63,933 nt of DNA, filler included, from Eremomyces bilateralis CBS 781.70 (GCA_010015585.1; 6 parts of 6 records of this genome joined end to end with filler, not necessarily neighbours in it); one strand, 5' to 3'; shown: positions 27,956-58,959, counted from the whole stretch's first letter. Notes: generated from the sequence alone by a model not told the origin. Numbers and translations are program-made.

Positions 27956-28144
27956 NNNNNNNNNNNNNNNNNNNNNNNNNNNNNNNNNNNNNNNNNNNNT
28001 TAATTAATTAANNNNNNNNNNNNNNNNNNNNNNNNNNNNNNNNNNNNNNNNNNNNACTACGAAGCTCAGACGGGCCGAAACATTGCTTCCGAAGCGTTAA
28101 GGGCAGGAGATAGACGGCCTCCTTAAAAGGGAGGAGAGACCTTT

Positions 28145-28917: not shown

Positions 28918-31699
28918 CAGGCTGGCTAATCGAGGCGTCGCGAGGCGTCGCGAGGGATGACTAAGCGCCTCGCCTCGCCTCGCCTCGATTGCATACTAAA
29001 CCGCCTCGCGACGCCTGCTGGAACCATGGTTGAGCGTACCAAAGATGAAATTCCGTAATCCTGTATGCCATACAGAGGTCGATATCACGGTGAGGAGGAT
29101 GGTAAAGACGGTGGTGGTGAAGATCGCATACTATATTCTCCTAGCTAGACTCCTCCTCCTCGTCGTCGTCATTATCCACCGCTAGATTCGCTTGTGAGAA
29201 GACGATCTTCTCGAGATCAAGATCACTAATAATACCATTTCTAAACCAATGCTGTAGACACACCAACTTCCTCAACGTCTTCGCGTTCATACGGGCTCTC
29301 TCTGTGTCCAGGAGTCGCCCACAGGAGGACCATATCCGCTCCATATCCGCGGCGGATGCTGGAGTGGCAAAAAGGTCCATAGCGATCCTATAGAGAGCTG
29401 GAAATCGCGTACGATTAGCAATCCACCATTCCATAGGGGCCTTCATCTTCTCCTGAGGCTCGTTGAGATATTCAGAAACCTCATCCACGGAGGAGATTTC
29501 CTGTGGTTCAAATCCAGGCCCCCAAGAACCTAAGAAGTCCTGGTAGGCGCTCCGCACGGTATGATCCGTTGACGAAGAGCTCTCTGGGACGGATATATCT
29601 TGCCGTAACGTGGCGACAGACTCACGTAATTTAGTAATGACTTGAGCCGTGCTAGGGTTTTTCGGTTCCTTGAGATCGAAGAACCTTTTCTTATATCGTG
29701 GATGAAGCAATACCGCGAGCATATACGCAGGAGTCTGCGGGTCCCTCATTTTAAGTTGGTATTTCATCGCCTTAGAGAGGGCTCTCTGTAGAGGCGATGC
29801 GAGCTCCTGGAGAACCGGTCGCCTCGGTATCTCCGCGATCAAAGAGACTAAATCTTTCACGATCAAGTGGATAACGAGGTAAGATTCGAAAAGAGCTCCT
29901 TCAGCACCATCCTCAGCGTTACTTTCTAGGATTTTGGAGCGAATAAGGAAGGGGTGGTAAATCGCTTGGAGCTCTTCTAGAACAGCCCAATCAGCCCCTG
30001 TAAGCCCCTGGAGAGAGGCGTGTCTTGCGCAGTACTGATCAATTGTAGCGCGTAAACGGAGAGCACGACTAATCGAGTCGTATCTTGTATTCCACCGTGT
30101 CTGGTTTTCACGGATAATACGGAGAGGCTGATCGCGACGTCGCTGAGATTGATCGACCATACCCTCTAAAATAGTGGTTTGGATCGTCAAGAACTCTTGC
30201 TCACGTTTCGAGCTACTTTTGATATGGGTAATGATAGACTTGAGGCGTTCAACGGAGACCACATCGACATTCGTTGGAAGCGTAGGACTTCGAAGATTCT
30301 GTCCTGGATGGCCAGGAATGCCACTGTCCTGCGTACATTGAAGGCCATCTGACTCGTCGTTGTCCGTGCCAGCCAAATGGTCGGTAGATAGCTGTTTGCA
30401 TATCAAATTAACGATATGACAGGCGCATCGTAACCGTTTTCCAGAGACCGGGATATTAGTAATATTTCCAAGCTCTTCTACCGCCGTGGTGTTATTATCT
30501 GCGTTATCAGACATCAAGTAAGCGATCCTTTCCTTGATCTTATACGCCTGTACGGTGTTTTTCATGATCCGTGATAGATTTCGCCCTGTATGAGCTCCTT
30601 GAACCTCTTCCACAGTGAGGAGGGTATTCCGTTGGCGTGGTGTTTCACCGCCGGAGATGAAATGGGCCTCGATACCAAAGAAGGGTATATCGGTCGCAGA
30701 CGTCCAGATGTCATACGACAACGATATCTTGCTGGATGCACGCGAAAGTGTATGGGACACAAGAACAAGGCATTCTTCGTATACCTTGGCCACCCTATTG
30801 TATACGGATTGGTGATTCTTTACTCTGAGCTGTGGATCTCCACCGCTCAAAGATTCCATCAATCCGTTGTGTGCCACAGAAGAGGCCTGGCGAAATGGTA
30901 TACCGTCGAGGATCACCCATTTTAAATACGCCGCATTGACATTCAAGAGCCCATTCCGGAGAGGCAGAGAATGGTGATGGAGAGCCCACGATTCACGAGA
31001 TCCAGGAGGGATTACCTGTGATCCACGGCTCAAGAAAGAGTGATCTCTTATAAGATGGTCTCGTGCAGACGACGTCGCGCCGACCCTATAGAGCTTTAAA
31101 TCGAGGTTGGATCGAGCCCTTCGCCAACAGATATAGCAGACCCAATATGGAATATCTTCCTCCTCGTCTACTCTGCGAGCGACGAATCCCCAGTCCCATA
31201 CAACGCTTCGCTTTCGCGGGCTAGATAAGCGATGATACTCTTTCACGAGGGAGAGACCGTATTCACGGAGAAACTCTGGATCAGGCGTGAAATCTCCTAT
31301 TCCGCCGGGGTCAGGAGCATACTCAGAAAAAGAGGAGGAAAACGATGGTAGAGACGACTGTAAAGACGACATATTGATATCGATTCTATACGTTGAGAGT
31401 AATCTTGATATTATACATATATTGACTTTGGATTTGACCAAAACCTCCTCAATATTCATGACTCCAGCTGGAATGTTTAATGAGCTCACCAAATCCCATA
31501 GAATCTGGGTCACATCCAGAAGATACGGACTGAGATGATGAAAGATTGGTAGAATAGGACCAAATGGGTCTAGCGAGACCTTTCCAACCCGCTTATTAAT
31601 TATCCGAAGATATACCGACTGCCTCGCGACGGGTTGATCGAGGAACGAGGCGAGGCGAGGCGAGGGCCTCGCGACGCCTCGCCTCGATTAGCCAGCCTG
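28918..31699 (-). mobile_element. Complete hAT DNA transposon with TIRs and 8-bp TSD
   Basis: TIR CAGGCTGGCTAATCGAGGCG / CGCCTCGATTAGCCAGCCTG. TSD CTCAATTG at 28910-28917 and 31700-31707. CGAGG subterminal repeats. Confidence 0.95.
29141..31513 (-). CDS. hAT transposase (intronless ORF; true start possibly Met at ~31372)
   Basis: BED-like finger (WVCYIC...ARDHLIRDH), SYDIWT, MSDNAD, CACHIVNL, TRWNT and the dimerisation domain WWIANRTRFPALYRIAMDLFATPASAADMERIWS. Confidence 0.92.
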   Translation of the reverse strand: MTQILWDLVSSLNIPAGVMNIEEVLVKSKVNICIISRLLSTYRIDINMSSLQSSLPSFSSSFSEYAPDPGGIGDFTPDPEFLREYGLSLVKEYHRLSSPRKRSVVWDWGFVARRVDEEEDIPYWVCYICWRRARSNLDLKLYRVGATSSARDHLIRDHSFLSRGSQVIPPGSRESWALHHHSLPLRNGLLNVNAAYLKWVILDGIPFRQASSVAHNGLMESLSGGDPQLRVKNHQSVYNRVAKVYEECLVLVSHTLSRASSKISLSYDIWTSATDIPFFGIEAHFISGGETPRQRNTLLTVEEVQGAHTGRNLSRIMKNTVQAYKIKERIAYLMSDNADNNTTAVEELGNITNIPVSGKRLRCACHIVNLICKQLSTDHLAGTDNDESDGLQCTQDSGIPGHPGQNLRSPTLPTNVDVVSVERLKSIITHIKSSSKREQEFLTIQTTILEGMVDQSQRRRDQPLRIIRENQTRWNTRYDSISRALRLRATIDQYCARHASLQGLTGADWAVLEELQAIYHPFLIRSKILESNAEDGAEGALFESYLVIHLIVKDLVSLIAEIPRRPVLQELASPLQRALSKAMKYQLKMRDPQTPAYMLAVLLHPRYKKRFFDLKEPKNPSTAQVITKLRESVATLRQDISVPESSSSTDHTVRSAYQDFLGSWGPGFEPQEISSVDEVSEYLNEPQEKMKAPMEWWIANRTRFPALYRIAMDLFATPASAADMERIWSSCGRLLDTERARMNAKTLRKLVCLQHWFRNGIISDLDLEKIVFSQANLAVDNDDDEEEESS

Positions 31700-38537: not shown

Positions 38538-38637
38538 NNNNNNNNNNNNNNNNNNNNNNNNNNNNNNNNNNNNNNNNNNNNTTAATTAATTAANNNNNNN
38601 NNNNNNNNNNNNNNNNNNNNNNNNNNNNNNNNNNNNN

Positions 38638-38910
38638 TAGGCCTCGGATGGGTGCGGGTGGGTTGGGTTGGGGTTCTCTTGGCGTGCGGGTGGGGTGGGG
38701 TGGGGTTCTCCAAACCTGGATTCCCAACCCAACCCCACCCGCATGCCAAGCAACCCAAACCCAACCCCACCCGCAGGCAACCAGGGACAAACCCAACCCC
38801 ACCCCATGCCAAGAAACCTTGGGGGAACCGCGGGGTGGGGTTTTCTGCGGGTTCAACCCCAACCGCAAGATGGGTTGGGTTTCTTGGCGCATCTGATGGG
38901 TTTCTTGGCA
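38638..38910. repeat. Left TIR and G/C-rich subterminal repeats (GGGTGGGGTTGGG / CCCAACCCCACCC); mirrored at 45414-45676
   Basis: About 38790-38889 is a near-exact reverse complement of about 45416-45512. Confidence 0.9.
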
Positions 38911-39347
38911 TTATTAAAAGGGCTTTAGACTAGATTAGGCTAGTAGCATATAGAGAGAGAGATTCATACGCCCGTCAGGCCTCTCTGCGAGGCCCATGTG
39001 GGGAACTAGCTAGCTAGTAGCATATAGAAGATGTGGTAGTCAGATGTGGTAGTCAGATATGGTAGTTTAGTCACGCGGTATAAAATGTAAGTAGGAAGCT
39101 TTCTATTTAATTCTGGCTATAGAAGTTTATCCGGCGCATTAAGCAGGATCATTAATCTAAGAGTATACGATGCTCACTCACCCATCGTATACCCAAACCT
39201 GCGACTTGTTATTCGCCTTAACTGACAAATTGGAGAATTATAAAAACGCCATCCATTGACACCCATAACTCATGATATACGTTAAGCCATAACTAAAATA
39301 TATTAGTTTATATAATCATGGTAGGATTCAGACCTTACCTTCACGTT

Positions 39348-39889
39348 TTACTTTCGAGCGTGCTTCCTAACCGAAATGAAAGACCCGTCGCACAACCTTT
39401 CCACCAGCTCGATATCCTTCGCCTGGAGAGTTACGCGCTTGGCATGGATGGCACAGAGGTTGGAATCTACGGTGTGTTAGTTATGTGGTAGTCAGGAGGA
39501 AGTAAATAAAAACATACTCTCAAAAAGCTTTACAAGGTATGCTTCTGATGCTTCTTGGAGCGCCTCGAGCGCAGACCTCTGGAAACGATACCCTCCATCG
39601 TAATTGAAGTCACCTGAGATCTCGCGCACAAGTCGAGCAAATGGCAATTTCGGAATCAGCAGTTCGGTTGATTTTGCCAACTGCTTGATCTCTCGAAGCA
39701 CAGACACTTAGAGGTTTAGCTACTACTACACCGACTACTACACAGAAACTTACTGCCAGGACGTTTGAAGTATGCGCCAGTCTTCGTCTTCCTTACAGGC
39801 TTTCTCGAATTCGTAGACCGTTTCCTGGCTGGGGGGCGCTTTCTGCCAGGAGTGTGCTTTCCGCCGGGGGGGCGGTTTTGAGATGGCAT
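39348..39889 (-). CDS. Divergent histone H3-like protein (147 aa, 3 exons)
   Basis: Exons 39889-39754, 39706-39518 and 39466-39348 with GT-AG introns and CTAA-type branch sites. Product [147 protein letters not shown], a complete H3 histone fold. Confidence 0.93.
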
Positions 39890-40660
39890 GGTTATTCGTC
39901 GAATCGTTGGTAGAGTTATGACCGTATTGTTTGTTAGGTTTCGGTTGTAGAGAAGGCTAGGTATGGAGGAGAAAAAGGAAGGTAAAGAGAGAGGACTAGG
40001 TTGTTGGTTAGTCGACGTTGTTATGAGTAAAGGTAAGGTTTCTCACCAGGTTATCACTTCTGAAAATAATTCCAAGTCCTTTTTACCAATAACTCTGGCA
40101 AATCTTGATCGTTTTCGACCAAACGAAGTAATCTCAGCGTGGTAGTACTTGTGGTGGTCACCAAGAGCAATTTCCTCAAGATGGGAGATCTCCTAGGATA
40201 TATAAAAATTAGTAAGAAGTGAAAATTAATGTCGAAAGTGACATTCAAGTGGCTAACCGTCCTGCGAGCTTAATTCTACAAGATTTAAGCTTACTACTGC
40301 ATTCGAAGTGCGGTAGTATTCGTGGTAGTCGAGTTATGTTATAAAAGGAAGAAAAACGGGTGAGTTAACGAAAATATCGAGATTTCTAAGTGTTTTGAAT
40401 TTCTTCGTATTTCACTTCACTTATGAAAACCTAACCAAAATAAACTATCCCCCAAACAAAACCTTTACCAAAACAAAACTTTCCTCTTAATGAAACTTTC
40501 TTCCCCTTACCCTAACGCCTCCCAATCTTGATTATTTTCCATGCTAGTTACAAGATTGTAAGAGTTATTAATATTTCAAAAGTGAGAATCTCAATAACTA
40601 ACTTTCTGCTAGCTTCACCTATCCCATGATCCAGTGACCGGCAGTCTTAACGAGACGACA

Positions 40661-42090
40661 ATGACGGCTAAGCGGAAGGCGGTGGCCGATCTCTCTACCA
40701 ATGCGAATACAGCTCGCGAGCGAAAGCGTCGGGATGCCCGGGATGCAAGTCGCGTCGAATATGAGAACCGCAAAAAGGCTGATCAGACTGCGGTATCGCG
40801 CGCACGGGCAGCTATAGCGCTGTTACCAAATTTCAGGTCGAGTGGGACCGACAAGCGACAAGAGCTACTTCGTGTAGCGGTCGAACAAGTGACCAACGAA
40901 AGGTCAGTTATGTGTACCAGTCAATGTGGTAACTAGTATTTTTACTAACTAATCTAGGATTAATCGTGGAGTCCATCACTCGCTCCATCCCCTTGCGGCG
41001 GTCCCTGCGACGACTAGGACTGCGCAGGACCCAAAGTTATTTCTCAATAAGCTCTATCCCGATGCCGATAACGATAGCGATTGGGAAGATCTCCATGAAG
41101 ATATGGAAACTTCGGTCGATCAGGATTTCGAAATCCTAAACAGTATGCCCCTCCCGCCAACATTTAATTCGACGGATTTCAGGTTCTGGGCGGAATACAA
41201 GCGAACTGTTGCCAAATATGATTTCTATAATCGGATCGAATTGGGAGAATGGCGTCGCTTTACCAAACGATGGCAACGAGCACGAAAGGCGGTTCTATAT
41301 AAGAGCCGAGCTATCAACCGAGCGAGAACTTTAGACGGTCGGCTTAGCCTTGGAAAGCTATGGCTTCTGGTAGACACCGTGGAGATTTTGGTAAGTGTGG
41401 TAGTTTATGTGGTAGTCCTATACTAACCGCATTTAGCGATCGAGTGCCGAACTGCAAAGGCTGATCCGAGCAGATTGGCAATCTTTCGGCTTAAACGCCG
41501 AAGACCAAGATTGCGCAGAACTTGAGTGGATAGTTCGTAATGCCCCGGCGTTGGACGACTGGCTGTCATCTCCGGCGTTCTACTCGAAGGGTCATTTAGA
41601 TCTTCACCTCGTATGGCCGAAGCTCCCCTTCGCGATTCGATATTTTCTCGTAAGTTTAATGCGGTAGTCAGCGTGGTAGTCTCTTTTCGGCTTATTTGAC
41701 ATTTTAAATCAGAACCAGAGCGCCACTTTCTCAACGGCGCCTTTTGCGCACCAAATTTTCAAGGATCGACACGAGAGAGGCATTTTAATTGGGTTCCTCG
41801 CTTGGGCTGGTCGATACCAATATGAATTCCCCTTCCCGGCTTGCTTGTGGGATGCGCCTGATAACGATGAAAGATGGGGACTTTCTAAGATTAGCGACTC
41901 GAAGACGGCTGCCATGATGTATGATGGTTTTAAACTCGTCTTTAAACCGCCTGGGAACTGCGAAGCCCCCCCTGACGCCTACCGCATCGACTGTCCAATT
42001 GATAGAGATGCGATGATCGGAGATGGATACTTGCTATCGCTCCGCCCTAACGGTGAGCGAGGGAACGCTATTTGGAAAAGGAGGATGTGA
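40661..42090 (+). CDS. Hypothetical protein (421 aa, 4 exons), transposon cargo
   Basis: Exons 40661-40902, 40958-41390, 41437-41649 and 41713-42090 join without stops through canonical GT-AG introns. Basic helical N-terminus, acidic patch (DADNDSDWEDLHED) and Trp-rich C-terminal domain. Confidence 0.8.
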
Positions 42091-42379
42091 CAAGGCATCT
42101 AGCTATTCGATTGATAGGCTGGAACATTGACTACCACACCGACTAGTACGCCCTTCGCAGACATAGTTCTGCAGCATATGAATAACGGATTCGGGCAGAA
42201 TATGGGGGGCTGGTGGACCAGGAATTAATATACATTCTGCTTCAACCCATTTCCTGTGATGAATTGATAATATTCTATTAAGTACTTCAATCACGATAAT
42301 ACATTACTGCCATACTGACTACCACACTGACTACCACTTTTTATCATTACTTAAACCTGTCTTTTACTCTATTTCTAAG

Positions 42380-45281
42380 ATGGCCTCTTTATACACTGAT
42401 TCAGAGCCGACTGAGCCCCAGTCAAGCTTTACCGAAGCAAGGTCTGCGATCGAATCGTCCGACGGAATCGGTGTCGATGGTCTCCGGCAGTATACGATCA
42501 AAAACACGACATATTATGTTGTTGACCGAGATAACCCCGCGCCGTTTGACGATTGGTGGAAGAGAACCCAATTCTGCCTTAGGAACAAGGCTAGAGACCC
42601 TGACAAGCGGTTTAAGCCAACGTGGGATAGAAAAGTGGTTCGTTCTGATTACTGGTCCTACTTCGAAGAAATCGCCGAGTCTGCTACAGGGGTTGTTAAG
42701 ATCCATTGTATCCGCTGTGGTTTTGTTGGGGGCCACCCAGCTGTAATCACTGAGAGGCTAGACGGCAGTCTCGGATCACGTACTGGCAATTCGACAATGA
42801 AGGCGCACCTTCGGTCAGGAAATTGTATGCAGAAAGCTGATAACAAGGGCCTAACCCAGTTGACATTTCACGATATTACCGATCCAAGGCGCAAGGTAAG
42901 AGACTACTATATGAACTAGTATATACACTTTCCCTAATAGAGTTTAGGCTAGAGTTGATAGGACCCGAGCTGCCCAATTCCTTGAGGGACAACGGGTTAC
43001 CTCGAAGCATTTCTTGGATTGTCTGGCTCGAATGATTGTTTCTCGGGGTATCCCTATGAACTTCTTCGAGGATCCTGAAGTCCAGCGGTCCTATCTCTGC
43101 CTAACGACTACTGAACCACCATTTAGTAACCCAAAGAGTCTGCGGAATCGGATCTTCACTCTCTATGAATCCGCGACGAAGGCAACTCGGGATGATCTTG
43201 CCCACCCTGATAGCATCAAACAGAAAATTGGTCTCGCGGTCGATGGCTGGTCCGCAAAGTCTGGCCGTACAGGCTATCTTGGAATTCTCGCCTATTGGAC
43301 CTCGACGGACATGAAATGGCATGAGGCGCTTTTAGCGTTCACGCCAACTGAGGCTAGGCATTCCGGTCGGGACCTAGCGGAGATGATCATGCAGACACTA
43401 CTCAAGTTTCGAATTACTGACCGTCTACGCTCAATCACTGCAGACAATGCTTCGTCAAATGGCACGATGGTCGCGTCTATCAACGACGAGTTGAAATTTC
43501 TGTTGTCGTCACATGGAAGCTTAGACCCGGTCGTATCAATCCCTTGTATCTCCCATGTTATTCAGCTGGTCCAGGGAGAACTCCTCAAAGGCCTCAAGTG
43601 CGTGGCGGAGAATTCGGAGATTATCCGAAACTGGGATGAAAAGGAGTTTGTGAGGGAGCAGCGCGCAATTGCGTCGTATGGGGCGGTGCCAATTACACTT
43701 TGGAAGGTGAGTCTCTACTCCTTGTAAAATGTGGTAGTCAATGTGGTAGTCATTACTAATATAGTCTAGGCTCGACAGACCGCTAAACACATTGTGGCAT
43801 CGGAGAAACGACTGAGAGATTTTCTTAAGATCCAGCAGGAGCTTATCGACCAGGAACACCCGACCCTGGACAAACAGGAGCTCTTCTGGGTTAGCCTGCT
43901 CCGGCAACCCCTGCGTCCACTACAAGACGTCAAAACACGATGGGACTCGACTACGCAGATGCTTGTTCGACTCCGCATTCTTCGCCAACCCCTTGACCGT
44001 TACTGGCGTCAGGTTTCGAAGCAGTCGATGGCCCTCGATCCTCAACAATGGGATATCATCGAATACCTTATTGATATGACCGCTCCACTAAATGCATTTA
44101 CGCAGTCAATTGGCAGATCGTCGTCCCCATCAATCCACAGAGTCTACACGATCTACGATACTACATTCGGCCATCTTGAATCTACGATCGATAGACTTAA
44201 GAAGAAGCATGCTTCGTGGAAGATTAGCCTCAAGGAGAGCTTGGTGAATGCCGTAGAGAAGTTGAAGAAGTACTATAGCAGGACTAGTGTTTTTACAGCT
44301 CTTGATGAAGCATACGCGTTCTCTTTCCTACTCAGTCCTAGGACACGAAATACTGCTTTCACTTCATCGGCTTGGAAAGGGAGGGCTAATAACCGGGGAC
44401 AAAATTACCGAACAGTCTACATGGGGAGACTGCGGGATCATTGGGAGGAACACTACAAGGTTGACAACCCAACCCAATCAGAAGAGGGAGCAGCTTATAC
44501 ACGCGGAATTGACTATGTGCGTCAACGGTTGCATCAAGATGTTCAGCCCACCGAGGGTTCAAACTCTCGATCAATGGACGAGCTAGCAAGATATTTTGAC
44601 TCTTGTAAGTACATATTCCCCTTTATTCATACTCCGATCTCTTACTAATCTTTTAATATAGGCTCGTCAAACAATATTGAACCTCTCGAAGCTTGGCGCG
44701 AGAATGGAAACTACATAGCCTACCCAACAGTTGCTCGGATGGCTCGCGACTACCTTTGTTCTCCGGCAGCATCCGTTGGCGTCGAGCGCCTATTTTTCCT
44801 TGCTCGCTGTCAGTCAGAGTTCAATCGGGAGTATAAGAGTGAAACACTCGAGGCGATCATGGTGGCCAAGGCGAGGTTGAAGCTTGACTTTCAGATAGAA
44901 TCCGAGCGTCTCCAAGAGCTGGAGGAAGAGCTAGGTGATATCGGTGATGCTGATACGTCTACGCTAGACACACTGGTTATAGAATCGGACACTCGTAAGA
45001 GGCATACTAATAGTATCCTGCGCGCGACGGGTGAAGGGGAAATTCATTTGATCAGCGACGGTGAAGATAGTGAGGATGATGTTGAGGATGACGGGAGGGA
45101 TAGCGATCCTAATACTGGGGAAGATAGGAGGGACGCTGATCAGAGCGATGGTCTAGGGGAACCAGACGAGACACTAGATGAGTTAGGTGAAGATTACGAT
45201 ACAGCTGGAGTAGCAAAGAGGACACGAAGTAGTACTATGGCAAGTGAACCTCAAGACCGTTCGAAGCGGAATAGGTTATAG
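42380..45281 (+). CDS. hAT transposase (909 aa, 4 exons)
   Basis: Exons 42380-42895, 42948-43706, 43770-44604 and 44662-45281 splice in frame. BED-like finger (YWSYF...CIRC...MKAHL), AVDGWS, TADNAS, CISH, TRWDST and YPTVARMARDYLCSPAASVGVERLF. Confidence 0.93.
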
Positions 45282-45676
45282 ATAGGTTTTCTTCTATTAG
45301 AGTACTTTTGAATGAAATTAATTTCTTTCCCTTGACTACCACACTTGACTACCACATATGACTACTATATTTAATCCCCTATTCTATCCTACAACCGGAT
45401 CGTACCTCTAGTTATGCCAAGAAACCCAACCCATCTTGCGGTTGGGGCTAAACCCGCAGAAAACCCCACCCCGCGGTTCCCCAAGGTTTCTTGGCATGGG
45501 GTGGGGTTGGGGCGGGGTTTCTTGGCGTGCGGGTGGGGTTGGGGTGGGGTTTTGAAATATTGGCTTCCCACCCCAACCCCACCCGCAAACCGGCGGGTGG
45601 GGTTGGGTTTGGGTTTGCCAAGAACCCGCACCCAACCCGTTTTTTGCGGGTTGAACCCGCACCCATCCGAGGCCTA

Positions 45677-46096
45677 GTTGAAGGCACCGAATAAAGTAAC
45701 GAGCGCCCGTGGGCCATCGGCGGCGCCCAGTGCCGTCAACGCTGCTGCCACGACAATCTGAAGTCCCAGACATCCATTGATGAGGAAAGAAAAAATCTTA
45801 TATTGCTGTTTTGAGGTGGCTTCAGAGTTGACAATGCGTGCGTAGATTCCAATGTTTGATGCGGGTCGGCGAAAATACGCTGTGGCCGTGAGAGTCGGAG
45901 CTTCGCTGATTCCAAGGATGGTTCGGAACGCCGTGAGTTTGTCGGTGTGAGGGATCAAACGAGATCGTTCCCTTCCCAAAGGTGCGCTGTGTTCGGCAGG
46001 CCTGCTTTCGTTTCCGTCTCCTGTTCCCGTATCGTCCTCTGCAGCAGTTGAGAGGGGGCCTGGATCTTGGCTTTCAATATCATTGCGAGTAAACAT
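45677..46096 (-). pseudogene. SLATT-like (fungal 2TM) membrane protein gene truncated by the hAT insertion
   Basis: ...YKIFSFLINGCLGLQIVVAAALTALGAADGPRALVTLFGAFN runs directly into the TIR-supplied TAG. The pattern matches the fungal SLATT two-TM domain as recalled, not searched. Confidence 0.65.
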
Positions 46097-47198
46097 TGAG
46101 CTCAAAGCAGCTCTGCTTCGTGCAAGAGTTTAGTGGACTGTTGGGCTTCGCATAGGCTTCCACCTCAAGGTTTTGGCGCATCTGAAGCGGTTCTTTGGAT
46201 AAAACCTTTCCTTTCCTCCTTTGACTTGGGGATCAATCCCTTTTGAAATAACAACAAGCCCTTCAGCTCACCATTGCTCAACCGTGCATGTTCATGTTCA
46301 TTTCGGGAAGGATCATCAATACAGTGCCGGGACCCCATGTCATTTTCTGTTCATCGGTCTGGGTCGTTGCATACGATTGGCGATGGAATTATTACTTGAG
46401 CAGGCCGAGGCGAGCTACAACTCGAATGAGAAACCTTTGAACCCTTGCGGTCTACCAGTTCTGAAATAAGTATTGCTGTCGCATTAGCGTGCGGGTGACA
46501 GGGTGTATAAGCCCCACAACCTCTTTTATGGCGGCTCCGTCCGGGGCTAGGACCCTAAGCGAACCCCCTGCCACCCGGAAGGGGGGGGAATGTGCTTGTA
46601 TGTGCCCTCTACGTCCAGTAGTTTGATTGGACTAAGAAACTATTGATATGGATCATGAGATACTAAATGCTTATGAATTCTCAAGATCTTCATGGGCGAG
46701 ACGTCCTCGAGCCGGGACGATATCTGAAGACAAAACATCGTTATCGAACGACACCCTACTTCGCAGAGAAAGGCTAGAGGCATGCTCTACCCAGCACACC
46801 TTTTCGTATTTATTGCCAGACAAATCTGACGCTCTTTGGATCAACCTTTCGAACCGGAGATGCACCATAACTAATGTTGGTATACCCGCACCACACGCCC
46901 AATATTGTTCCATATATTGGGCGCTGGCCACCCCAAAGTACATACCACCCCAACATACACAGAATGATCCAGCGAAAGGAGATTTGCCATTTAACGCCCA
47001 AGATAAAGAATTTGCATACTAATTAATAATAGAATCATTGCAAAGCCATCGAAACTACTAATCCCTCGTGCTAAAGTAAATTTAGATCGCGTTGGGCGGG
47101 TTTTGCATTACTCTGAAGTTCCACCCTCCACGGAATGAAAGTGGTATCACTAACTTCAATCTCTAAAAACACAAGATGTCGCCAGAAGAATATACGAA

Positions 47199-48568
47199 TT
47201 AAACCGTAGGAGGATGGATAAACTGTGGTTGGGGGCCCTGGCGAGCTTTTTCGCGTGTTTTTCGGTCTTTCTCACGTTTCCTGACCTTCGTAGCCTCTTT
47301 CCTCTCCTCCTTCGCCTGCTCCTTGGCTAGCCTCTCCGCCTCACGATTATCTACAACCTTCCTACAGTCTCCTACCGTGAGCATACCTCCTTGGAATACG
47401 CGTCGTCTCCGACCCGCTTTGGCATTAATCAGTTTCATCTTTTGCGCGAGCTCTGAGGTGGCGAGATCGTGCATCGCCTTCTTCGCTTCAAGAGCCTGGG
47501 TCTGGGCACCTCGTGATAGTTGGTCAACGCGGTGGAGGATTTTCATTGGAACACCCTCTTCCTCGAGTTCCTTGTAGATGATATTCTTCAATCGTGAGGT
47601 CGTTCGCACAGTGGTGGGAGTCTTGAGCTGTGTCTCCTCTGGATTCCGCTCCGGAGGAGGAGTAAGGAGCCTCTCTACATCGATCGATGGAAGTGGTGGG
47701 CGGACCTTATCAAGTACGATATCAGGATTCCACGGATAGAGTCCTGCCTGGCGAAAACCGCTCCGGATCGTGCCCTCGGTCAGGGCCTCTTTCCGTACAT
47801 CACCAATCGCATCCAGAAACTCTAATTTCCCGTACTCCGTGATGCCCTCGCGGACAGCGTATTCATACCGCTTCCCATGATAGTGCTTCATCGGCTGGAA
47901 ACACGAGAGGTCGAGAGGTTGCATAATATGTGTAACGTGAGGAGGGAAGGCGATCGGGAAGATCGCGTGTTCGTAGCAGAAATCTACAAAAAGGGTCGTT
48001 TTATGGCACCCATGCCCATCCAGGAAAAGCACTCGTTTTTGACTGGTATGACCACGACCTTCCGGTCTCGTATGGCGCTCAAAATGCTGTATCCAATCGA
48101 ATGCGAAGAGGTCGTTATTGAACGCTGTATCCGTCGCACCAAGGAGGATATCATCGTCGATATTGATCTCATCCTGGACCCAGCCTTCTAGGATCCATTT
48201 CCCCTTCATGATCAAAGAGGCGGGAATCTTCTTCCCTAGGGCGTTCACTCCCTCCACGATGGTGGCAGACTCGCGGTTCACAGGCACTGCGATCCTGTTA
48301 TAATTATCGTTTCCGGTATCCCGTACGAGCACGATCATCTTAGGATTACCAACCCCGATCATGAACCCCGATTCATCCATATTCCACATATTCTCCGGTT
48401 GTATGTCGTGTAGGTCGAGCCACGCGCGAGTCTCCTCGAACCAGTGCTGGAGATGATCGAAATCCTCCGCCTCGCGTCGCTTTATATCTCGTGGTCTCGA
48501 TGATATAGTTTTGATCTCAGGGTGTCGCATCAGATACCGGGCAACCCAATGTTGCCCAAGAGGTTTAA
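47199..48568 (-). mobile_element. pogo/Fot1-type (DDE_1) transposase, 5' part cut by the TTAA element
   Basis: PLGQHWVARYL, WNMDESGF, LFLDGHGCH, FPPHVTHIMQPLDL, SGFRQAGLYP. Confidence 0.9.
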
Positions 48569-48825
48569 GGGTGACGGGTTGGTCTAGATTGCTTTTATAT
48601 ACACGAGGCAGATTGATTTATATACAGTAAGATAAGAATAGGTTTTTAAAGTGTGAAAAGAAAAAAGAGAAGGAAAAGAAAGATGTAAAAGAACGTAGGC
48701 GTTGAGGTCCGGGGGGGTAGGAGGGCGGGGAGGAGCTTGAGGGGCGGGTCCTGGTCGTAGAGGGCTAAAGGTCTCGGTATGCCTCGTTTTGGGTCCCTGT
48801 ACCGTAGCGATCCAGCTCTCAGCCT
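48569..48825. mobile_element. Second copy of the terminus of the unclassified TTAA-associated element
   Basis: Near-identical to 25829-26085 and begins right after TTAA at 48565-48568. Confidence 0.8.
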
Positions 48826-48925
48826 NNNNNNNNNNNNNNNNNNNNNNNNNNNNNNNNNNNNNNNNNNNNTTAATTAATTAANNNNNNNNNNNNNNNNNNN
48901 NNNNNNNNNNNNNNNNNNNNNNNNN

Positions 48926-51877
48926 CATCTGCTCCCTTATCTAAGAGCAGCGCGACAATCTCTTGATGGCCTCCTGATGAGGCGGCTTGGAGAGCGTTGC
49001 CGTAGAGGCCGCCCTGGGCACCTACATCTGCTCCCTTATCTAAGAGCAGCGCGATAATCTCTTGATGGCCTCGAGATGAGGCGGCTTGGAGAGCGTTGCC
49101 GTACTCGCCGCCCTGGGCATTGACATCTGCTCCCTTGCCGATAAGATCTCGCGCAGGCGCTACGAGCCCAGTGAAGCAAGCATAGTAGAGCTTGGAACCT
49201 CGTGGAGGACCTGGGTCATTATCCCAATGCTTATCAGCCTGATACAAGCGAGCCCATCGCTGGAACGTCACCTCCTCTTCTACGAACCTGACCGTCCCTC
49301 GAACTATATCTTCTGAAGCCTGAGCCAACGCAGCAAAGCCTGTCCAGACTTCCGCTGCAAATCTTGCCATCGGAAAATCCCGCTTGATCTTTTGGTTGCT
49401 ACCATTGATGTCCGTAAGATATGTCAAGCATGTCTTCGTGATGGAAATGCTGGCAGTCGAAATCTTGAACTGATTCTCCCCAAGAAGGTACTCTTTCACA
49501 GAAAAGTGGGCCAAATGCAGCTCTTTATCGGTGGCGTGAACGACTGTCGCTAAGCCGGGACAGTAGTCTAAAACAGCTGTCTCGCAAAATAGTCGACGAT
49601 TGATATCAAATCCTTGCGACCCGTTTTCAATCTGTGTTGCTACTACTTCTTTCGCCTCGACCAGCTTGAGAGGTTGCTTGGAGTGCACCAGGAATTGTAG
49701 GAGCCGTATCGCATCGTTTTTGAGATCTATCGGTATGCGTTCAATCATGCGTCGGTACGTTTCTTCTAGGTTCCGCGGCAAAGATGCAAGAGCTTTCGCC
49801 ATGTCCGCCGCGTGACGACATCGAGCTAGGCTGTCCAACTGACAGAACGCCCATCTAAACCTACGCAGAGCGTCAGCAAACCATCAGCATATTAATTGAA
49901 GCAATAATATCTTACATCCCGTCGGCTCCGTCGCCAACCTTCCTCCGAATCCTCTCAAGGAGATCCTGGGACAAGTGCTTGTTCCGAAATTCACGTCGTT
50001 GCGCAAGCTGTGCTGCGACGTACGATCGGATATCAGCGTTGACAGAGTGCTTGTCGAGTGCCAAGCTGTTTTCCTCGCCTATTAACGAGGGAATTTCGCT
50101 CAGGAACTCGGCTTCAGGCCGACCGGTACAAATCAGCTGGACGTGGCCCAGCTCTGGCCTGGAAACTACGTCCTGGGTCCAGAGGAGTAGTTCGCGCCTC
50201 GTTGTCGACTCGTCCAAGGCGTCTAGAACGATAGAGACCTTCGTCTGGACTGCGAGAAACTTGAATAAAACATCTGAGAGCGCCTTTGTCCCAATTTGGT
50301 CACGGCCATCCTGGTGTGCTTGGAATGAGGCGTCAAGAAGGCCTGCAGAGGCACTGCGGCCTCGGTAGAGTTGGAAAGCAAGCGACCGCAGCATGCCATC
50401 CACAGTCTGCTTTTTCGTGTCGCCAAAGTCAAAGAAGAAGTTGAGGATAAGACGGTCGTTTCCCTTCTCAAGATGATCCAATATAGTTGCGCTGAGAACC
50501 GTCTTTCCACATCCCGCGAGACTATACAACCACAAATGTCGACGCGACCCTGAGTGCCACTCCTGGAAGGCCGGGTTTTCTAGGAGCCACGTACCTGTCC
50601 CCTCATGGCGGAGCTCCCTCGCGTGGTTGGCGTTTGTAGACGGATCGGAGGGGCGAAGCCAGCGCTCGATCTTCTCGGTACGAAGGTCGGCCTGGATGGA
50701 ATCAGTGGCTATTTTCGCTATACCTATGGTCTGCTGCATACTATCGATTTTTTGTTCAACTAAGGCAGGTCAGAATGTGCTCGACGTGATATTATTACTC
50801 CGCCTTGTTTATTCGCCAGGCCAGGGCCCTGTCGGAGGATATGGATCACTAACCTGACTGAAGCATTTCTAGCGCTTTTTTGGTCTCTTGGACCTCCGCG
50901 ACCGGCACGTATGCCAGGAGCTCCTTAGTATACGCAGCGGCGGTGGCCGAGGCGTAACGTTGCCATCGATCGTTCTTGTGGGAATCGGCGTAGTCGCAGA
51001 TCCCTCGGATCACAAGACAGGGAAAGTGGTTCATCAGGCCGGCTGCTTCCATCTCAAAGCAGATGCAATCCTCGCCGACGTCGGCAACAATCCGATCGCG
51101 CGCAGCGGCGTCTTTGACCAGCGTGTTGCCGGATGCGATGGTCCCGTAGTGGATATCGGGGTCGGTGGTGTCTCGAGGATCGCGTTGAACGTCGCCAGCC
51201 GCGTCGCAGCCCCGACAGTCCGGCCCGGAGACGTGGCCACTAGAAGCTTTGAAGAGGCGGTCTTTGTGGAAGCCCTGGTGAGTATAGCCAGGACTTATCT
51301 TGGATCTCTTGCCCATCTTCGGGTATTTCTCTAACATCTGTTGAAGGAAGCAGCGAACTTTGGAGTCTTTCCGCTCGTGATCGGCCTGGATGCTGGCAAG
51401 CGCGTTGAGGAGGACCGTCGGAGGCCGTCCGAGGAAGCCTTTACGCTCACGCCTGTCACCAGGCTTTGCTTTGATCAAGTCGTACTGGCAGACGCCGCCT
51501 GTGGTCCCATCAGGCTGGCTCACGACAATGTCGCCTAGCCGGATATCGCGGTCATCGTCCGGTCGTGCGATGCCGCCGCCTATGCCGACCAGAAGACAAA
51601 CACGGATGGATGGCAGAGAGGCAAGCAGGCTCGAGGCCGTGGTCGCAGCCGAGGTGGTTCCATAGTCTCCGGCGGCAAGACCGACGATAACGATGTTGTG
51701 CTCTCCCATACGACCCCATGTATAACGGTTCGCGTCGATTTGGTGCCTAGCGAAGCCAGTTGGAGGCGCATGTTCTTCGTCGAACATCGCTTCTGCAGCG
51801 GCCCGCTCGATGGGAAGAGCTGCGATCCAGGCGACCGCATAGGAGTCGGGGCTGTCGAGAGAGTTGCGGGATGCCAT
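48926..51877 (-). CDS. Fungal NLR: PNP_UDP (nucleoside phosphorylase)-NACHT-ankyrin repeats, 3' truncated by the contig end
   Basis: Exons 51877-50854, 50759-49916 and 49860-48926. PNP motifs LLVGIGGG, FEMEAAG and IRGICDYADSHKN. NACHT Walker A SLAGCGKT, Walker B VLDALDE and ADGMFRWAFCQL. ANK repeats GADVNAQGGEYGNALQAAS. Confidence 0.93.
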
Positions 51878-52421
51878 GGTGTGGAGGGAAGCGCGCCAGG
51901 CCGGCAGATGGGCGGGTGGAATGACAGGTTATGCGGTTCGCCTAGGTCAGCGAAGAAGCTAGAGTTGAGTCGCCCTTGAAGGTCAAGGACGACCACAGCA
52001 GCGACAAAGAAAGGCTATTATAAGTTCTGGTCCAAGGCTGCGTTCGTTTTCCGGTCACTTCGCAGCTTGTTCTCCGCGACCGCAGCCTTGCGCTTTGCGA
52101 CCTGACCAGATCGCGTGCAGTCACATTTTAACGCAGTCCTCTAATATGGCGCCGAACCACAGGACGAAACTAACTCTCGATCATACATTCAGTAACGGAT
52201 ATCGAGGACTGCTGGAATTTCCCGTATCAAATCGATCCGCATCAAAGTCAACCTCTGCAAACTCTACTTTGATCCTACACACCTTTTTAGCCTTAGCCCC
52301 CACCGGTGCGGAAACTAGAAACCAAAGCCGAGCAGCACATTAAAAGAAACTTTTCGTAGCGCGGCTACAGTAAGAGGCGTTCTCAGCAAGTCCAAGTAAC
52401 GACAGCGTTCCCGTTGTGACT

Positions 52422-52439: not shown

Positions 52440-55400
52440 TGTCACAGAATATCTGTGTTTTATTGACGTATCATTGGCGTATCGTTGGCGTATCACCACT
52501 GTCTCATCTCATATTCGATTCTATGCCTTCTGTTTCCTTTATCGGGGAAAGGATCATCATAAAAAACCACATAAATAGCTGCAGGAACAGCCTGTTTTCG
52601 TAGGATGGGGGCGAAGAGAGGATCAAGTTAAATCTATCTATTGCTCTTTTGGAATCTAACGGGGTTTTCCACCGTGTCGCTGCATTAATCACCGGATTGA
52701 GCGAAACCGCTATTTATCTCACAGTTATGAGCCCAATTATCGCTTAAAGCACCATAGACGACATCAACAGATAGTTCTATCGTGTCTTTCCCACTTGTTC
52801 TCTCAAATTATACCGACGTTCGCTTATTTGAAAGTCTATCGTTTCATCTGCAATGTCTACCTCTGCAAACGACCTCGCAGTGATCGTCAAGGCTGCTCCA
52901 CCTCTCAAATCCCCAGCGGATTGGCGTGACTGGTACAACTTCATCAAGTCCCACGGAAATCGAGTAAGAGTATGGAAGTACATCGACCCTACGACCGAGG
53001 AAGATCCCGAGGAACCCCAGACATACAGCAAGGAGGAATACAACAAATTGACGGAGTACGACAGAGACCAGATCACTCAATCGAGAAAGCTCGAGGAGAA
53101 TGTTCACAAAGCGAAAGTCAGGATAGGAGATATCATCTTCGCAATCGTACCTGAGGAAGCGAGGCGTGGTTTCTCTATCAACGATACACCACGTCAAATG
53201 CTCTCCTACCTCAAGTCTCGATATGGACCTGACGAAAACCAGTACGAGGAACTGGTGGAAACTGCCTGGGAACGCCTTCGCGTTCGTCCAAAGAGGATGA
53301 AGCTACAAGACTGGATCCTCGAATGGAAACACTTCAAGGAATACGCAGAAGAGCTAGGGCAGAAAACCACCTATACTGATCTGAAGCTTATCAGAGAACT
53401 CATCAAGATCTGTAGACGTGAAGATCTTGACCGATTTTCAACTCGATCTGAGGATGCTATATGGGTTGCAAGGGAACCAGGAGGTAATCCTGCACATCTC
53501 AAACTGAATCATCACATCGAGCTCTTTCTAAAGACGTACCCCATGGAGATACCGAAGCCTACCAAAGGGGCACTTTTCGCAACTCTCCAAGGAGAGACTC
53601 CAGAGCAGACGTCTCAACCATCACAGATGCCCCCTGCAGCGGCATCACCGTCGTCGACTCCCGTCCCCCCTCAATAAGAGAAACGAGAGAAGACTCTCCC
53701 AGCCTATGTGTGTGGGGAGAAACACCTGTACAGGCGTTGCCCGTACTTCAACCGAAATCTTAGACCTTCAGGTTGGAAACCGAAGTCTGAGATCAAAAAC
53801 CAGATTATATCTCACTTGAAGGCTAATCCAGCGGCCGACAAGACTCTACGGAAGGTCCTTAAACGAGAAGGAATCAGCCTTCCTGATTGGTTCCCGGCGG
53901 AATCATCCTCTACCACATCTACAACTTCGGAATCGCGTGAGGATGGTTCCTCACACGCGTTCGCTACGCGAGTGATGGAAGAATCTCAGGCGTTCGCCAC
54001 ACAGGCGTTCTCCGCAGTTGAACATACAGAGACCAACGAAGGAAGGCCATATAACCAGAGTTTCTATATGGACAACATGGCTTCTCACCACATATGTGCA
54101 GACATTACACGTTTCACGAACTACGTGTCTACAGATGGTACAATGAAGACCGGAGACTCGTACTCATCCTATGTGGGCACAGGAGACGTCAAGATCCCTG
54201 TGGTAGGAAAGCACGGGAAACAGACATTCATCACTATCCTAAACGTCCACCATATTCCGGGTTTCCACATCAATATCGTTTCAGCCAGGATGTTCCGAAG
54301 GAAAGGCTATGTACTTGATGAGTATTCCCAGGCAATCCGCAAGCTTGACGATAGGTCTCTCCTTTGCCATATGTATCTTCGCGATGAGTATTGGACCTTC
54401 ACGAGCGACGTATTGGTCCCTGTACAAAAGGGAATCACATTCGCGACACGATCGTCTCAAATCTCTATCTCAACAGCTCCTGAGGAGGTGTGGCACCGTC
54501 GGATGGGACACATTGGCACAGACAGCGTGCGAAATCTGGTAGGATCTGTACACGGTGTGTCAGTTGCCACAAACCTTCCATCGCATCCAGGCTCACGGAG
54601 TCTATGCGAAACATGTACGGTCTCTCAGATGAAAAAACAAATCTCAAGAGTTCCGCAGTATCGCGGTACTCGCCCGTTTGAAAAGATCCACGGAGACCTC
54701 ATCGCCTTTAATACAGGACTCTCAGATGAGACATGGGTGCTTCATTTCTACTGTGGATTCTCACGCTTTCATTTTGTCTATCCCATTCCAAATCGACGCA
54801 AGGAGACCATCTCACGATGACTCACTAAGACCCTTAACACTATAAGGACCATGGGCTATACCGTCCAGTTTCTTCGCTTTGATAATGAAGCTGCGATCGA
54901 GTCTGACCAAGTTATCACTATCATCGAGGACCACGGAATTACCCTAGAACTGTCTGCGCCGAAAACTCCAGCACAGAACGGGCCAGCGGAAAGATCAGGA
55001 GGTATACTTATTACCGACGCACGCAAAATCTGCGTAGACTCTCGTCTACCAGAAAAGCTGTGGCCCTATTTCGTGAAACACGCAGGATATCTCCTGAATA
55101 GGACTCCTGTGCAATTCCTTCAGTGGAAGACCCCGTACGAAGCTGTATTTGGTAGGAAACCAAATCTCTCACATCTCAGGATGATAGGATCAAAGGCCTA
55201 CGTCCTAAAGACAGATATCGCAAAGAAGGACAAGATGGAACCACGAGCCTCAATTGGTTTCCTTCTTGGGTATGAAGCTACAAACATCTTCAAGGTCTGG
55301 ATTCCAGGCGTTGAGAGGGTAATCACATCGCGAGATGTCCGTATCGACGAGACTATCCGGTACGATCCAACAATTGATGGGAACTCTACCCTCACCCCTC

Positions 55401-58132
55401 ACGATCGGTCTGCGCTCCAGGCATACCTTGATGATGTTGAAATCAACACACGCGCTTATATCGACGCTTTCGAAAATACCCCGGTGGTGGGTAATCACCA
55501 ACCACCCGCTCTCTCAGACCCAGGACTGTCTAAGCCTGCGGGAGAAATCGCGCCCGACACACGGATAGACAAGCCAACTGCAGATTCCCGCGGATCTCCT
55601 TCTCATCTTCCTACCCCCTCATCATCGAGGAACCCAACACCTGCTCTACCTTCTCCCAATCTTGCCTTATCTGGGAGGAATGAGGACCATTCTGGCGAAC
55701 CAGACGTTCCACCGGACACTCTCATCGCAAGCCAACAGTCGGTGGAAGGGCCCACCTTACAAGTCGGTGGCCTAGACATCACCAGTACGACGGACGCGGA
55801 TGAGACCAGAGGAGGTGGTACGCGCGATGATCATACAGGGTCTACCAGACGATCCTCATCGACACCCTCAGCCATCGAAACAACTATACCGGCCCTCCAA
55901 GAGGAAGAGGAAGAGGAAGAAGAGAGGCAAATTCATGAGCAGATCGCTTCAGATATTGCCTCCCCCGCAGGAGCCTATCAAGAGAACAGACAAAGGAAGA
56001 GTGCTCGCGAGAAACGCCCATCTCAAAAGGCTAGGGACGCGATGGAGACAAAGGCCTTTAAGACCCAGACCAGACATGCCTCACGCAAACAGGCGCATCT
56101 CACGATGATGCTCAATGCGACCCAATTGGCCCCATTGCTCCATGCGTTCGCAACCACACGTACGGATCGCATTCACCGGGATAATCTTCCTCCTCCGCCA
56201 AAACATTGGGGAGAAGTCCTATCACGCCCAGACTCGCACCACTGGATCCAAGCATCGAAAGGAGAAGTCACTGTTGTGATAAGAAACGGCACGTTTGAAC
56301 TCGTACCCATACCAAAGAACGATCCTGTGATTCCTCTCAAATGGGTCTTTACGTACAAGTTTGATGCCGACGGATATCTCATCAGGTACAAGGCGCGAAT
56401 CTGCGTACGAGGAGATCTCCAGGAAATTCACGACCGGGACGCACTGTACGCTGCGACAGGCGCATACACCACCTTCCGAATCCTGATGGCCCTCATCGCG
56501 GCCTTCGATCTGGAAGCAGAAGGTATCGACGCGGTAAACGCATTTACCAACTCAATCCTCAAAACGAGAGTATATGTGGGTATTCCACCTGGATTCGCAC
56601 AGCCTGGATATGCGTATCTCCTACGACGTGCCTTGTACGGACTTGCGGAGTCTCCAAAGCTTTGGATGGAAATCGTCAAGTCCCTCATGAAAGAGCTTGG
56701 GATGGTGCCCTGTGGGGATGATCCATGCCTCTTTATATCGGAAGATCCCTCCAAACCACTCATCGTCTTTGTCTATGTCGATGATTTCCTTATCATCGCC
56801 TCGCGGAAGCACAAAGTTCTTATCTCTCACTTTAAGGAAAAGTTCATGGAGAAGTATGAGGCACGGGACCTAGGACCTGTGACGCAATTCCTTAACATGC
56901 GAATCGTACGCGATCGCGAAAACCGCAAGATATGGGTATCTCAGGATGCCTATATTAGCAAGATCGCTACACGGTTTAATCTTCTCGATCATCAGCGTCA
57001 TCCTCTTACTCCCCTCTCCACATCGTTCGATGAACATGAGCCAAATCCCAACGCAACGAAGGAACAGGTCACGGGATACCAGCAGCGCATAGGATCGCTC
57101 ATCTATGCTGCGGTAGTTTCACGCCCAGACATCTCCCACGCGGTGAGTCGTCTGAGCGAGTTCAATACACGACCTAGTCCTGAGCACCGACGAGAGGCTG
57201 ATCGCTGTATCTCCTACCTATACGGAACTCGTTTCCATGCGATTGAGTACTCTTTCGACTCTTTTGACTCTAACCTATCGGTGTCTGCACGACCTTTCCG
57301 GTCCTATACAGATGCATCTTTCGCAGACGACCGCACCACAAGGAAATCGTCTCAAGGATATCTCATCTCACTTTTTGGCGGCCCTATTGCTTGGCAGGCA
57401 TCCAAGCAAAAGAGTATCACTACCTCTACCACCGAAGCGGAACTCCTCGCCCTCTCTTATACATCTAAGGAGGTGATAAGGATGATGCGCCTTTTCCGCG
57501 ATCTTCGATTCGATCCGGAGTGTCCTATCGTCGTTGAATGCGACAACGATCAAACTGTCGGTATCATCACCAAATCCATGCCCATTCTCACCACCAAACT
57601 GCGCCACGTGGACATTCATCAGTTTTGGTTGCGTCAGGAGGTGGAACGGAAGAACATATGCGTGGAATGGATTCCGTCAAACGAACAGGTGGCTGATGGT
57701 CTCACGAAGATTCTCTCTACCGCGAAGCACCGTGTTTTCTTTAACCAGATAGGTCTGCAGGACATCTACGCACTTGTTGGAGGATCAAAGGGATTGTGAG
57801 ATCTATACAATCCAGACATCCCCTTCAACGGTGATATCTGAGGAGGTGTGTCACAGAATATCTGTGTTTTATTGACGTATCATTGGCGTATCGTTGGCGT
57901 ATCACCACTGTCTCATCTCATATTCGATTCTATGCCTTCTGTTTCCTTTATCGGGGAAAGGATCATCATAAAAAACCACATAAATAGCTGCAGGAACAGC
58001 CTGTTTTCGTAGGATGGGGGCGAAGAGAGGATCAAGTTAAATCTATCTATTGCTCTTTTGGAATCTAACGGGGTTTTCCACCGTGTCGCTGCATTAATCA
58101 CCGGATTGAGCGAAACCGCTATTTATCTCACA
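52440..58132 (+). mobile_element. Young full-length Ty1/Copia retrotransposon
   Basis: 284-bp LTRs at 52440-52723 and 57849-58132, apparently identical. TSD CCTCG on both sides. GTTATGAGCCC follows the 5' LTR and the PPT GAGGAGGTG precedes the 3' LTR. Confidence 0.97.
52853..57799 (+). pseudogene. Copia gag-pol in a single frame with two in-frame stops (TAA 53675-53677, TGA 54818-54820)
   Basis: The three ORFs share one frame. CVCGEKHLYRRC knuckle, protease MDNMASHH, WHRRMGH, rve (QNGPAER), RT YVDD and RNase H YTDASFA. Confidence 0.9.
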
Positions 58133-58859: not shown

Positions 58860-58959
58860 NNNNNNNNNNNNNNNNNNNNNNNNNNNNNNNNNNNNNNNNN
58901 NNNTTAATTAATTAANNNNNNNNNNNNNNNNNNNNNNNNNNNNNNNNNNNNNNNNNNNN

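Follow-up and report, generated by a model that had tools for sequence, protein, structure and literature searches.

Why should a DNA transposon carry a histone gene? The question is raised by positions 38638-45676 of a 63,933-base stretch of DNA from Eremomyces bilateralis CBS 781.70 (the window, meaning the whole stretch analysed). This segment has the form of a hAT transposon whose single pair of terminal inverted repeats encloses three genes, coding a histone H3-like protein (H3L), a partner protein transcribed divergently from it, and a hAT transposase. Histone genes on mobile DNA are rare, and whether a transposon manages chromatin with a histone of its own is a question that Manning et al. 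(2013, PMC3538342) raised and that has stayed unanswered.

The reading favored here, at a probability of roughly 75%, is that the element belongs to the known H3L-hAT lineage, of which the first description came from Pyrenophora tritici-repentis, and that it is a live and complete copy, active in recent time and transcribed. Its novelty is that of an intact member from a further fungal order, of a kind already described in 2013. The host order is presumably Eremomycetales, which we take to differ from the order of Pyrenophora. The original prediction, made from the sequence alone, knew of no described fungal hAT family with H3 cargo; it was preceded on this point by Manning et al. (2013, PMC3538342) and Dhillon et al. 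(2019, PMC6710886). Among the papers listed by a full-text search for fungal hAT elements with an H3-like gene these two alone were relevant, and none of 13 publications mentioning E. bilateralis appears to concern the element, as judged by title or abstract.

Boundaries, copy number and insertion site

The element spans 7,039 bp and is bounded by perfect 22-bp inverted repeats (22/22). The left repeat (38638..38659, plus strand; TAGGCCTCGGATGGGTGCGGGT) begins at the first base of its contig and the right one (45655..45676, minus strand) is the exact reverse complement of TAGGCCTCGGATGGGTGCGGGT. With up to 3 mismatches allowed, TAGGCCTCGGATGGGTGCGGGT has only these two matches in the whole window and 0/100 shuffles gave two, in agreement with the prediction of one pair of ends around three genes.

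Four public sequencing runs were compared with the contig of the element, of which X1 is the DNA run. Three X1 contigs cover the element body, 38984-42503, 42535-44721 and 44753-45511, at depths of 883.6, 876.7 and 805.4, while the flank contigs 45647-46433 and 46776-48576 have depths of 173.6 and 174. The first two body contigs show no differences to the window and the third shows 2 other letters and 1 gap. The body to flank ratio of ~5 leads to an estimate of about five near-identical copies of the element in the genome. The body contigs are separated by two 31-base breaks, near 42519 and 44737, which point to a few sites of difference among the copies. A multi-copy state is further hinted at by records of each cargo protein on 2 contigs (18,296 bases for the longer one), by the break of the genome assembly precisely at the left inverted repeat, and by position 45647, 30 bases inside the right end, at which the flank contig begins in X1 and in X3 alike. 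This start fits a 31-mer assembly graph with a repeat ending at 45676, which would place the boundary at 45676/45677. The step at this boundary from a body at depth 805-884 to a flank at 174 supports that this is a single element and that all three genes belong to it, as had been proposed.

The left 376 bases (38638-39013) have a summed depth of ~4,900-5,200 in X1, to be compared with ~880 for the body and ~174 for the flank. X1 contigs diverge there with loose ends at 39005-39013, the body contig beginning at 38984. Because the summed depth is near 5,000 and contigs branch at 39005-39013, a more numerous, probably non-autonomous relative has these bases in common with the element. They include the left subterminal region (38660..39013), which is G-rich, has many inverted repeats and is common to the higher-copy relative up to ~39013. 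The right end has no comparable depth excess in X1.

Beyond its right end the element abuts a host gene with a SLATT_fungal domain (45677..46129, minus strand). The Pfam match (PF18142, E 2.7e-13) covers profile positions 1-55 of 121 and ends at the last residue before the element. Since the match stops at the residue abutting the element, the host gene is interrupted mid-domain. The other half of the SLATT gene is absent from the window. An X3 contig (45647-46403) holds the SLATT gene together with 30 bases of the element end. A candidate target duplication is GTTGAAGG, the 8 bases with which the flank begins; none of the other contig ends in the window has it.

Gene models and transcription

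The gene models were built by hand from the sequence and total 4,440 coding bases. They yield exactly the sizes of 147, 421 and 909 residues given in the original prediction. H3L (147 residues) is coded on the minus strand by exons 39889-39754, 39706-39518 and 39466-39348. The partner gene (421 residues) has plus strand exons 40661-40902, 40958-41390, 41437-41649 and 41713-42090, and the transposase gene (909 residues) has plus strand exons 42380-42895, 42948-43706, 43770-44604 and 44662-45281. The three models are backed by splicing in run X3 and those of H3L and the transposase also by Pfam. Annotated proteins P0003 (147 residues) and P0001 (421 residues) are 100% identical to the models over the exons searched. 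The divergent H3L and partner genes are separated by a shared region (39890..40660) that contains introns in the 5' untranslated regions (UTRs) of both: 39996-40046 and 40192-40256 on the minus strand for H3L, and 40558-40612 on the plus strand for the partner gene. H3L has in addition a 3' UTR intron at 39293-39338.

All three genes are transcribed and spliced. X3 contigs skip 12/12 introns inside the element at their exact borders, all 12 with GT..AG ends on the strand of their own gene, and 0/12 are skipped in the DNA run X1. They comprise 4 UTR introns and the 8 coding introns, so that the predicted clean splicing was found for 8/8 of the latter. Note that no RNA data set is on record for the element, that the label of X3 as RNA is a guess and that the transcript evidence is the spliced contigs themselves, whose depth cannot rank genes and gives no measure of relative expression. 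When the UTR introns are removed, the 147- and 421-residue frames stay the longest open reading frames (ORFs) of their transcripts. Run X4, which has another organism label, contains pieces of the element at depth 3-6 with no listed differences and no flank, which may stem from carry-over, from a mixed sample or from another species that has the element. Run X5 has a 38-base match to the element only.

The histone H3-like gene

The Pfam family Histone (PF00125) matches H3L exons 2 and 3 with E 1.9e-16 and 9.9e-07. The fold is ~67-68% identical to ordinary H3, and the best 60 PDB matches listed are all ordinary H3 or H3.3 (E ~1e-32), none of them CENP-A or Cse4. Word-based searches gave, among the matches listed, ordinary H3 only (~67-74% identity) and no closer relative. 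H3L departs from ordinary H3 throughout its length. The amino terminus tail is unalignable and lacks the ARTK start, the ARKS motif and the GGVKKPH context. PFARL takes the place of PFQRL, loop 1 is two residues longer (NYDGGYRF versus KTD--LRF), K79 is replaced, a proline is found in LLIPKL, and the carboxyl terminus is changed and longer. A longer loop 1 and loss of the glutamine in helix alpha-1 are hallmarks of CenH3. In a tree of 33 histone folds H3L was not joined with the two fungal CenH3 rows (P0157 and P0223). By its residues and its place in this tree, H3L is neither an ordinary H3 nor a CenH3.

In H3L intron 1 comes after ..CCT GGC A and intron 2 after ..TTT GAG A. As printed in Manning et al. 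(2013, PMC3538342, Figure S3) and inspected by eye, the Pyrenophora H3L has its introns after ..AAG GCC GGC A (phase 1), just before VALREIK, and after ..TTT GAG G (phase 1), in the codon following FE. Both introns are at the same codon and phase in the two genes, a correspondence seen by eye and not computed. It bears on the origin of the histone gene, for which Dhillon et al. (2019, PMC6710886) argue capture of a spliced H3 transcript, also in the case of the Pyrenophora element. Because both H3L introns share codon position and phase, such a capture appears to be contradicted for the Eremomyces and Pyrenophora elements, and the published idea is put in question. In the same source most H3-like copies match no more of the host gene than its third exon, over 71-100 residues (Dhillon et al., 2019, PMC6710886). 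As the third exon spans at least these 71-100 residues, the host H3 of that study would have no intron at the FE/D site. The FE/D intron, being apparently absent from that host H3, is a candidate shared derived mark of H3L.

The partner gene

A HMMER search of 1.84 billion representatives retrieved 17 relatives of the partner protein at E 0.001 or better. They are 80-237 residues long and each covers one or two exons (17/17 are exon-sized pieces), as if genes on other fungal DNA had been called without splicing. Twelve of these relatives can be aligned over partner exon 1, with the pattern KRKA..S.N..T.RERKR...YEN.KKAD, including 7 invariant columns. Similarity is lost at the site of intron 1 in 12/12: 6 relatives stop there, 5 run on for a few residues and 1 (P0239) resumes in exon 2. 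The best score of the partner protein in the ESM Atlas was 0.77, below the useful range, with a poor query model. The predicted complex of H3L with the partner had a score of 0.00, a value obtained without controls.

The transposase

The carboxyl terminus of the transposase carries a hAT dimerization domain, Dimer_Tnp_hAT (PF05699), matched on exon 4 with E 1.8e-09 and 37.7 bits versus a cut-off of 21.4. The Pfam match to hAT-like_RNase-H is weak (E 0.095). PDB sequence searches with exons 2 and 4 gave nothing meaningful, and exon 2 folded alone has a predicted local distance difference test score (pLDDT) of 43.5, an unusable model. Exon 1 has no Pfam match even at E 10; by eye it displays a C-x2-C ... 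H-x5-C pattern, which resembles a BED finger.

The window contains a second hAT transposase (29144-31687, minus strand), a single uninterrupted ORF of 848 residues with a Dimer_Tnp_hAT match of E 1e-18. Exons of the element transposase align with it at E 7e-12, 8e-07 and 1e-04. The proteins have in common, besides the dimerization domain at the carboxyl terminus, the D-x-W, DNA-x-x-N, C-x-x-H, RW and ER blocks, which we take to be the hAT catalytic blocks. They read VDGWS/YDIWT, ADNASSN/SDNADNN, PCISHV/RCACHI, TRWDS/TRWNT and VERLF/MERIW (element transposase/second transposase). They differ in that identity is only 24-25% over the two longer aligned stretches and in that the second transposase is one uninterrupted ORF. 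For the claim that the element transposase has all catalytic motifs, support is limited to the aligned blocks and inspection by eye; neither Pfam nor a fold confirmed it. The element would move by hAT cut-and-paste, a well grounded supposition.

A repeated 9-mer in introns and spacers

The 9-mer GTGGTAGTC has 13 exact copies in the window and 13/13 lie inside the element, the expected number being 0.23 and the maximum in 100 shuffles 2. With up to 1 mismatch tolerated, the 7,039-base element has 18 copies versus 9 in the remaining ~56 kb of the window, and 0/18 fall in the 4,440 coding bases. The copies often form doublets with a spacing of 12-13 bases. A left doublet (39033..39054, plus strand; copies at 39033 and 39046, 13-nucleotide spacing) lies in the H3L 3' UTR and a right doublet (45334..45355, minus strand; copies at 45334 and 45347) is inverted relative to it. 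Copies at 40139, 40151 and 40322 are in the region shared by H3L and the partner gene, and others are found in spacers between genes. Five introns carry copies, often as doublets: H3L introns 1 and 2, partner introns 2 and 3, and transposase intron 2.

A comparable arrangement is suggested in partner relative P0239, whose read-through of intron 1 (..VFVVVFVVVHTNKF..) translates as VFVVVFVVV followed by HTNKF. Since two GTN-GTN-GTN words 12 bases apart, followed by a branch site, would encode such a peptide and the words would be GTGGTAGTC-like, the relative probably carries the same kind of intronic doublet. Two other candidates were discarded. Metagenome matches to the 9-mer doublet amount to 119 loci, with 0 tblastn matches to H3L, partner or transposase exons, and were attributed to chance. 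The available text of supplement 2 of Dhillon et al. (2019) has no exact GTGGTAGTC; a doublet of GTAGTC type is present in it, and TAGTAGTC is found 7 times in 45 kb of AT-rich sequence affected by RIP (repeat-induced point mutation), a signal that is too weak.

The simplest reading of the GTGGTAGTC words is that they are putative transposase binding sites. The transposase would recognize the element ends and probably also GTGGTAGTC, whose inverted doublets flank the body. The intron-borne doublets provide a concrete and testable binding-site candidate.

Setting of the element in the window

The window consists of small contigs ranked by decreasing size and strung together by linkers of the form N44-TTAATTAATTAA-N44 at 14869-14968, 27956-28055, 38538-38637, 48826-48925 and 58860-58959. 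The linker at 38538..38637 is outside the element, joins two unrelated contigs and hides the left flank. The contig carrying the element (38638-48825) is without any N. RIP indices of the element are 0.92 and 1.02, which is borderline and uninformative.

The other contigs of the window contain mostly transposons: copia-type, gypsy-type, the second hAT and two DDE_1 genes. The DDE_1 (pogo/Tc1-type) transposase ORFs are at 47202-48617 (minus strand) and 60172-60987 (plus strand); the former lies on the contig of the H3L element, ~1.5 kb beyond the SLATT gene. A gypsy-type polyprotein (reverse transcriptase, RNase H, integrase and gag) is coded at 15126-20398 (minus strand) and two copia-type pol regions at 8922-10694 and 53678-57796 (plus strand). 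Among the minus strand ORFs at 50852-51928, 49915-50769 and 21075-21968 there are ones with PNP_UDP_1 and NPHP3_N (NACHT-type) domains and one of ankyrin repeats, the parts from which fungal NLR-like genes are made. A ~30-base stretch (..GTTGAAGGGGTGATTAGTCAACCGCATC) is present twice, at 7387 and 13062. The contig ends at 12428 and 12469 have a repeated unit in common, so that a repeat spans the 40-N gap.

Origin and possible role of the histone and partner genes

The histone and the partner may be long-kept accessory genes of the element and not accidental passengers, because an element from another fungal order has its genes in this order too, with H3L introns at these two sites. H3L would then enter nucleosomes without the tail motifs around K4, K9, K27 and K36 and without K79, the partner protein may help to deposit or target it, and the result could be open chromatin on and around the element, or easier transposition. 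This is the functional proposal we prefer, although it is tentative and the odds are against it. The original prediction likewise suggested that a private histone may serve to alter chromatin or to escape H3K9 silencing, an idea already outlined by Manning et al. (2013, PMC3538342). A more ambitious version would make the H3L-hAT elements one old Dothideomycetes lineage with histone and partner as working parts. In it the partner or the transposase would read the 9-mer doublets, which would be kept in ends, spacers and even introns and would change between species in step with that protein, and load an H3 without K4, K9, K27, K36 and K79 sites, shielding the element from heterochromatin or preparing its excision. 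Such a scheme is speculative and we hold it to be improbable.

The most serious alternative to membership in a lineage that keeps its cargo is that transduplication brought a host H3 and another host gene into a hAT element, and that these passengers were amplified, are functionless and will decay. This is the sense in which Manning et al. (2013, PMC3538342) and Dhillon et al. (2019, PMC6710886) read their elements in the texts available. It agrees with the report that all Mycosphaerellaceae copies are dead (PMC6710886), with the greater closeness of the H3L fold to ordinary H3 (~68%) than to the Pyrenophora H3L (~57%, by hand) and with the near identity of the Eremomyces copies, whose intactness may only reflect youth. 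Yet passengers acquired in this way would hardly be expected to show the same gene order in two fungal orders, nor H3L introns with site and phase in common with the Pyrenophora gene, one of them at the FE/D site where the host H3 of Dhillon et al. (2019, PMC6710886) seems to have none. The cargo ORFs are moreover complete and spliced, with introns of their own and UTR introns, instead of being fragments or chimeras, and the partner family keeps its first intron site in 12/12 aligned relatives. We consider the passenger explanation rather unlikely.

Two other explanations would remove the histone from the element altogether. H3L could be the host CenH3, or a recent copy of it, lying by chance between transposon ends, and the two extra residues of loop 1, the lost PFQRL glutamine and the unalignable tail count as CenH3 hallmarks. 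But the gene has ~5 times the flank depth inside a repeat unit, the best 60 PDB matches listed are all ordinary H3 with no CENP-A or Cse4, H3L did not group with P0157 and P0223, and the Pyrenophora H3L received the same verdict of neither H3 nor CenH3 (Manning et al., 2013, PMC3538342). A host CenH3 is thus a very improbable identity for H3L. Least credible of all is that two unrelated hAT ends, or an assembly chimera, bracket ordinary host genes. The window is indeed an artificial chain of contigs and the left end of the element coincides with a contig break. Against this, 38638-48825 is free of N, the independent X1 assembly covers 38984-45511 with 0-2 differences and even depth, the perfect 22-bp end pair occurs nowhere else in the window, and depth steps exactly at the right end.

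A number of observations weigh against the favored assignment to the H3L-hAT lineage. The folds of the Eremomyces and Pyrenophora H3Ls are ~57% identical (hand count from Table S10 of Manning et al., 2013, PMC3538342) and each is 68-72% identical to ordinary H3; because of this difference the sequences do not demonstrate a common origin of the two genes. They have only three derived residue sets in common (REIK, FQRSA, EALQ), which occur also in other H3 variants, and in the tree of 33 folds H3L stands alone on a branch of length 0.49 with most forks unresolved. That the central ORF and transposase resemble those of Pyrenophora is based on the published description and not on sequence. The partner protein matches no Pfam family, its AlphaFold model (shallow alignment) is poor, the pLDDT averaging 59 and confident helices being confined to residues ~11-95, and Foldseek gave 0 matches to the PDB at E 0.001 or better. 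H3L is known here as a gene and as spliced contigs, not as a protein or in chromatin. Contig depth is not copy number and no more than 2 contigs appear in the assembly record. From near-identical copies no evidence of selection inside this genome can be drawn, and the 8-bp target-site duplication is unreadable since the left flank is missing with the contig break at the left repeat.

The Eremomyces element is nevertheless a usable starting point for experiments, because it is intact, near-identical across ~5 copies, inserted in a gene and spliced in RNA for all three genes.

Comparison with known elements

Ordinary fungal hAT elements of the Restless and Tfo1 types have a single gene. Two published accounts describe H3-carrying hAT elements. 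In six Mycosphaerellaceae Dhillon et al. (2019, PMC6710886) describe hundreds of copies killed by RIP. These elements are ~9.5 kb long, carry one or two H3-like copies reported as intron-less, have inverted ends of ~20 bp and generate 8-bp target duplications. The Eremomyces element resembles them as a Dothideomycetes hAT with H3-like cargo. It differs in that its genes are intact, intron-bearing and transcribed, whereas those elements are dead and the published account consulted reports no central ORF. Dead copies make up most of what is known of this family.

The closer parallel is the ~5.6-kb Pyrenophora tritici-repentis element, in which a central ORF accompanies the transposase and the H3-like gene (Manning et al., 2013, PMC3538342). 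It is present in 10 almost identical long copies and 16 short derivatives and is represented by expressed sequence tags; expression of the element was reportedly not seen in a heterologous host. Its H3L matches neither H3 nor CenH3, and its authors raised the idea that it alters chromatin. The two elements have in common the three-gene layout between one pair of ends, a near-identical multi-copy state and transcription (PMC3538342). Their H3Ls, compared by eye, both have REIK, loss of the PFQRL glutamine and FQRSA-x-EALQEA. They differ in length (7.0 kb versus 5.6 kb) and in copies (~5 versus 10 long and 16 short), and the Eremomyces H3L, unlike that of Pyrenophora, is without the ARTK start and has the 2-residue insertion in loop 1.

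The repeated words extend the comparison to element architecture. hAT transposases depend on short repeats in the subterminal regions, well past the inverted repeats, and in Hermes these are bound by the BED domain for assembly of the transposition complex (PMC10368747). As in Hermes, short words are repeated in both ends of the Eremomyces element beyond its inverted repeats. Unlike in Hermes, the word has 9 bases, forms doublets of 12-13-nucleotide spacing and is found also far from the ends, in introns of each of the three genes (PMC10368747). The Pyrenophora element likewise has an element-specific word that occurs as doublets. By eye, TTATCACAG is found twice in intron 1 of its H3L, 13 bases apart, with similar doublets upstream and, inverted, downstream of the gene, so that the two elements display the same design with a different word.

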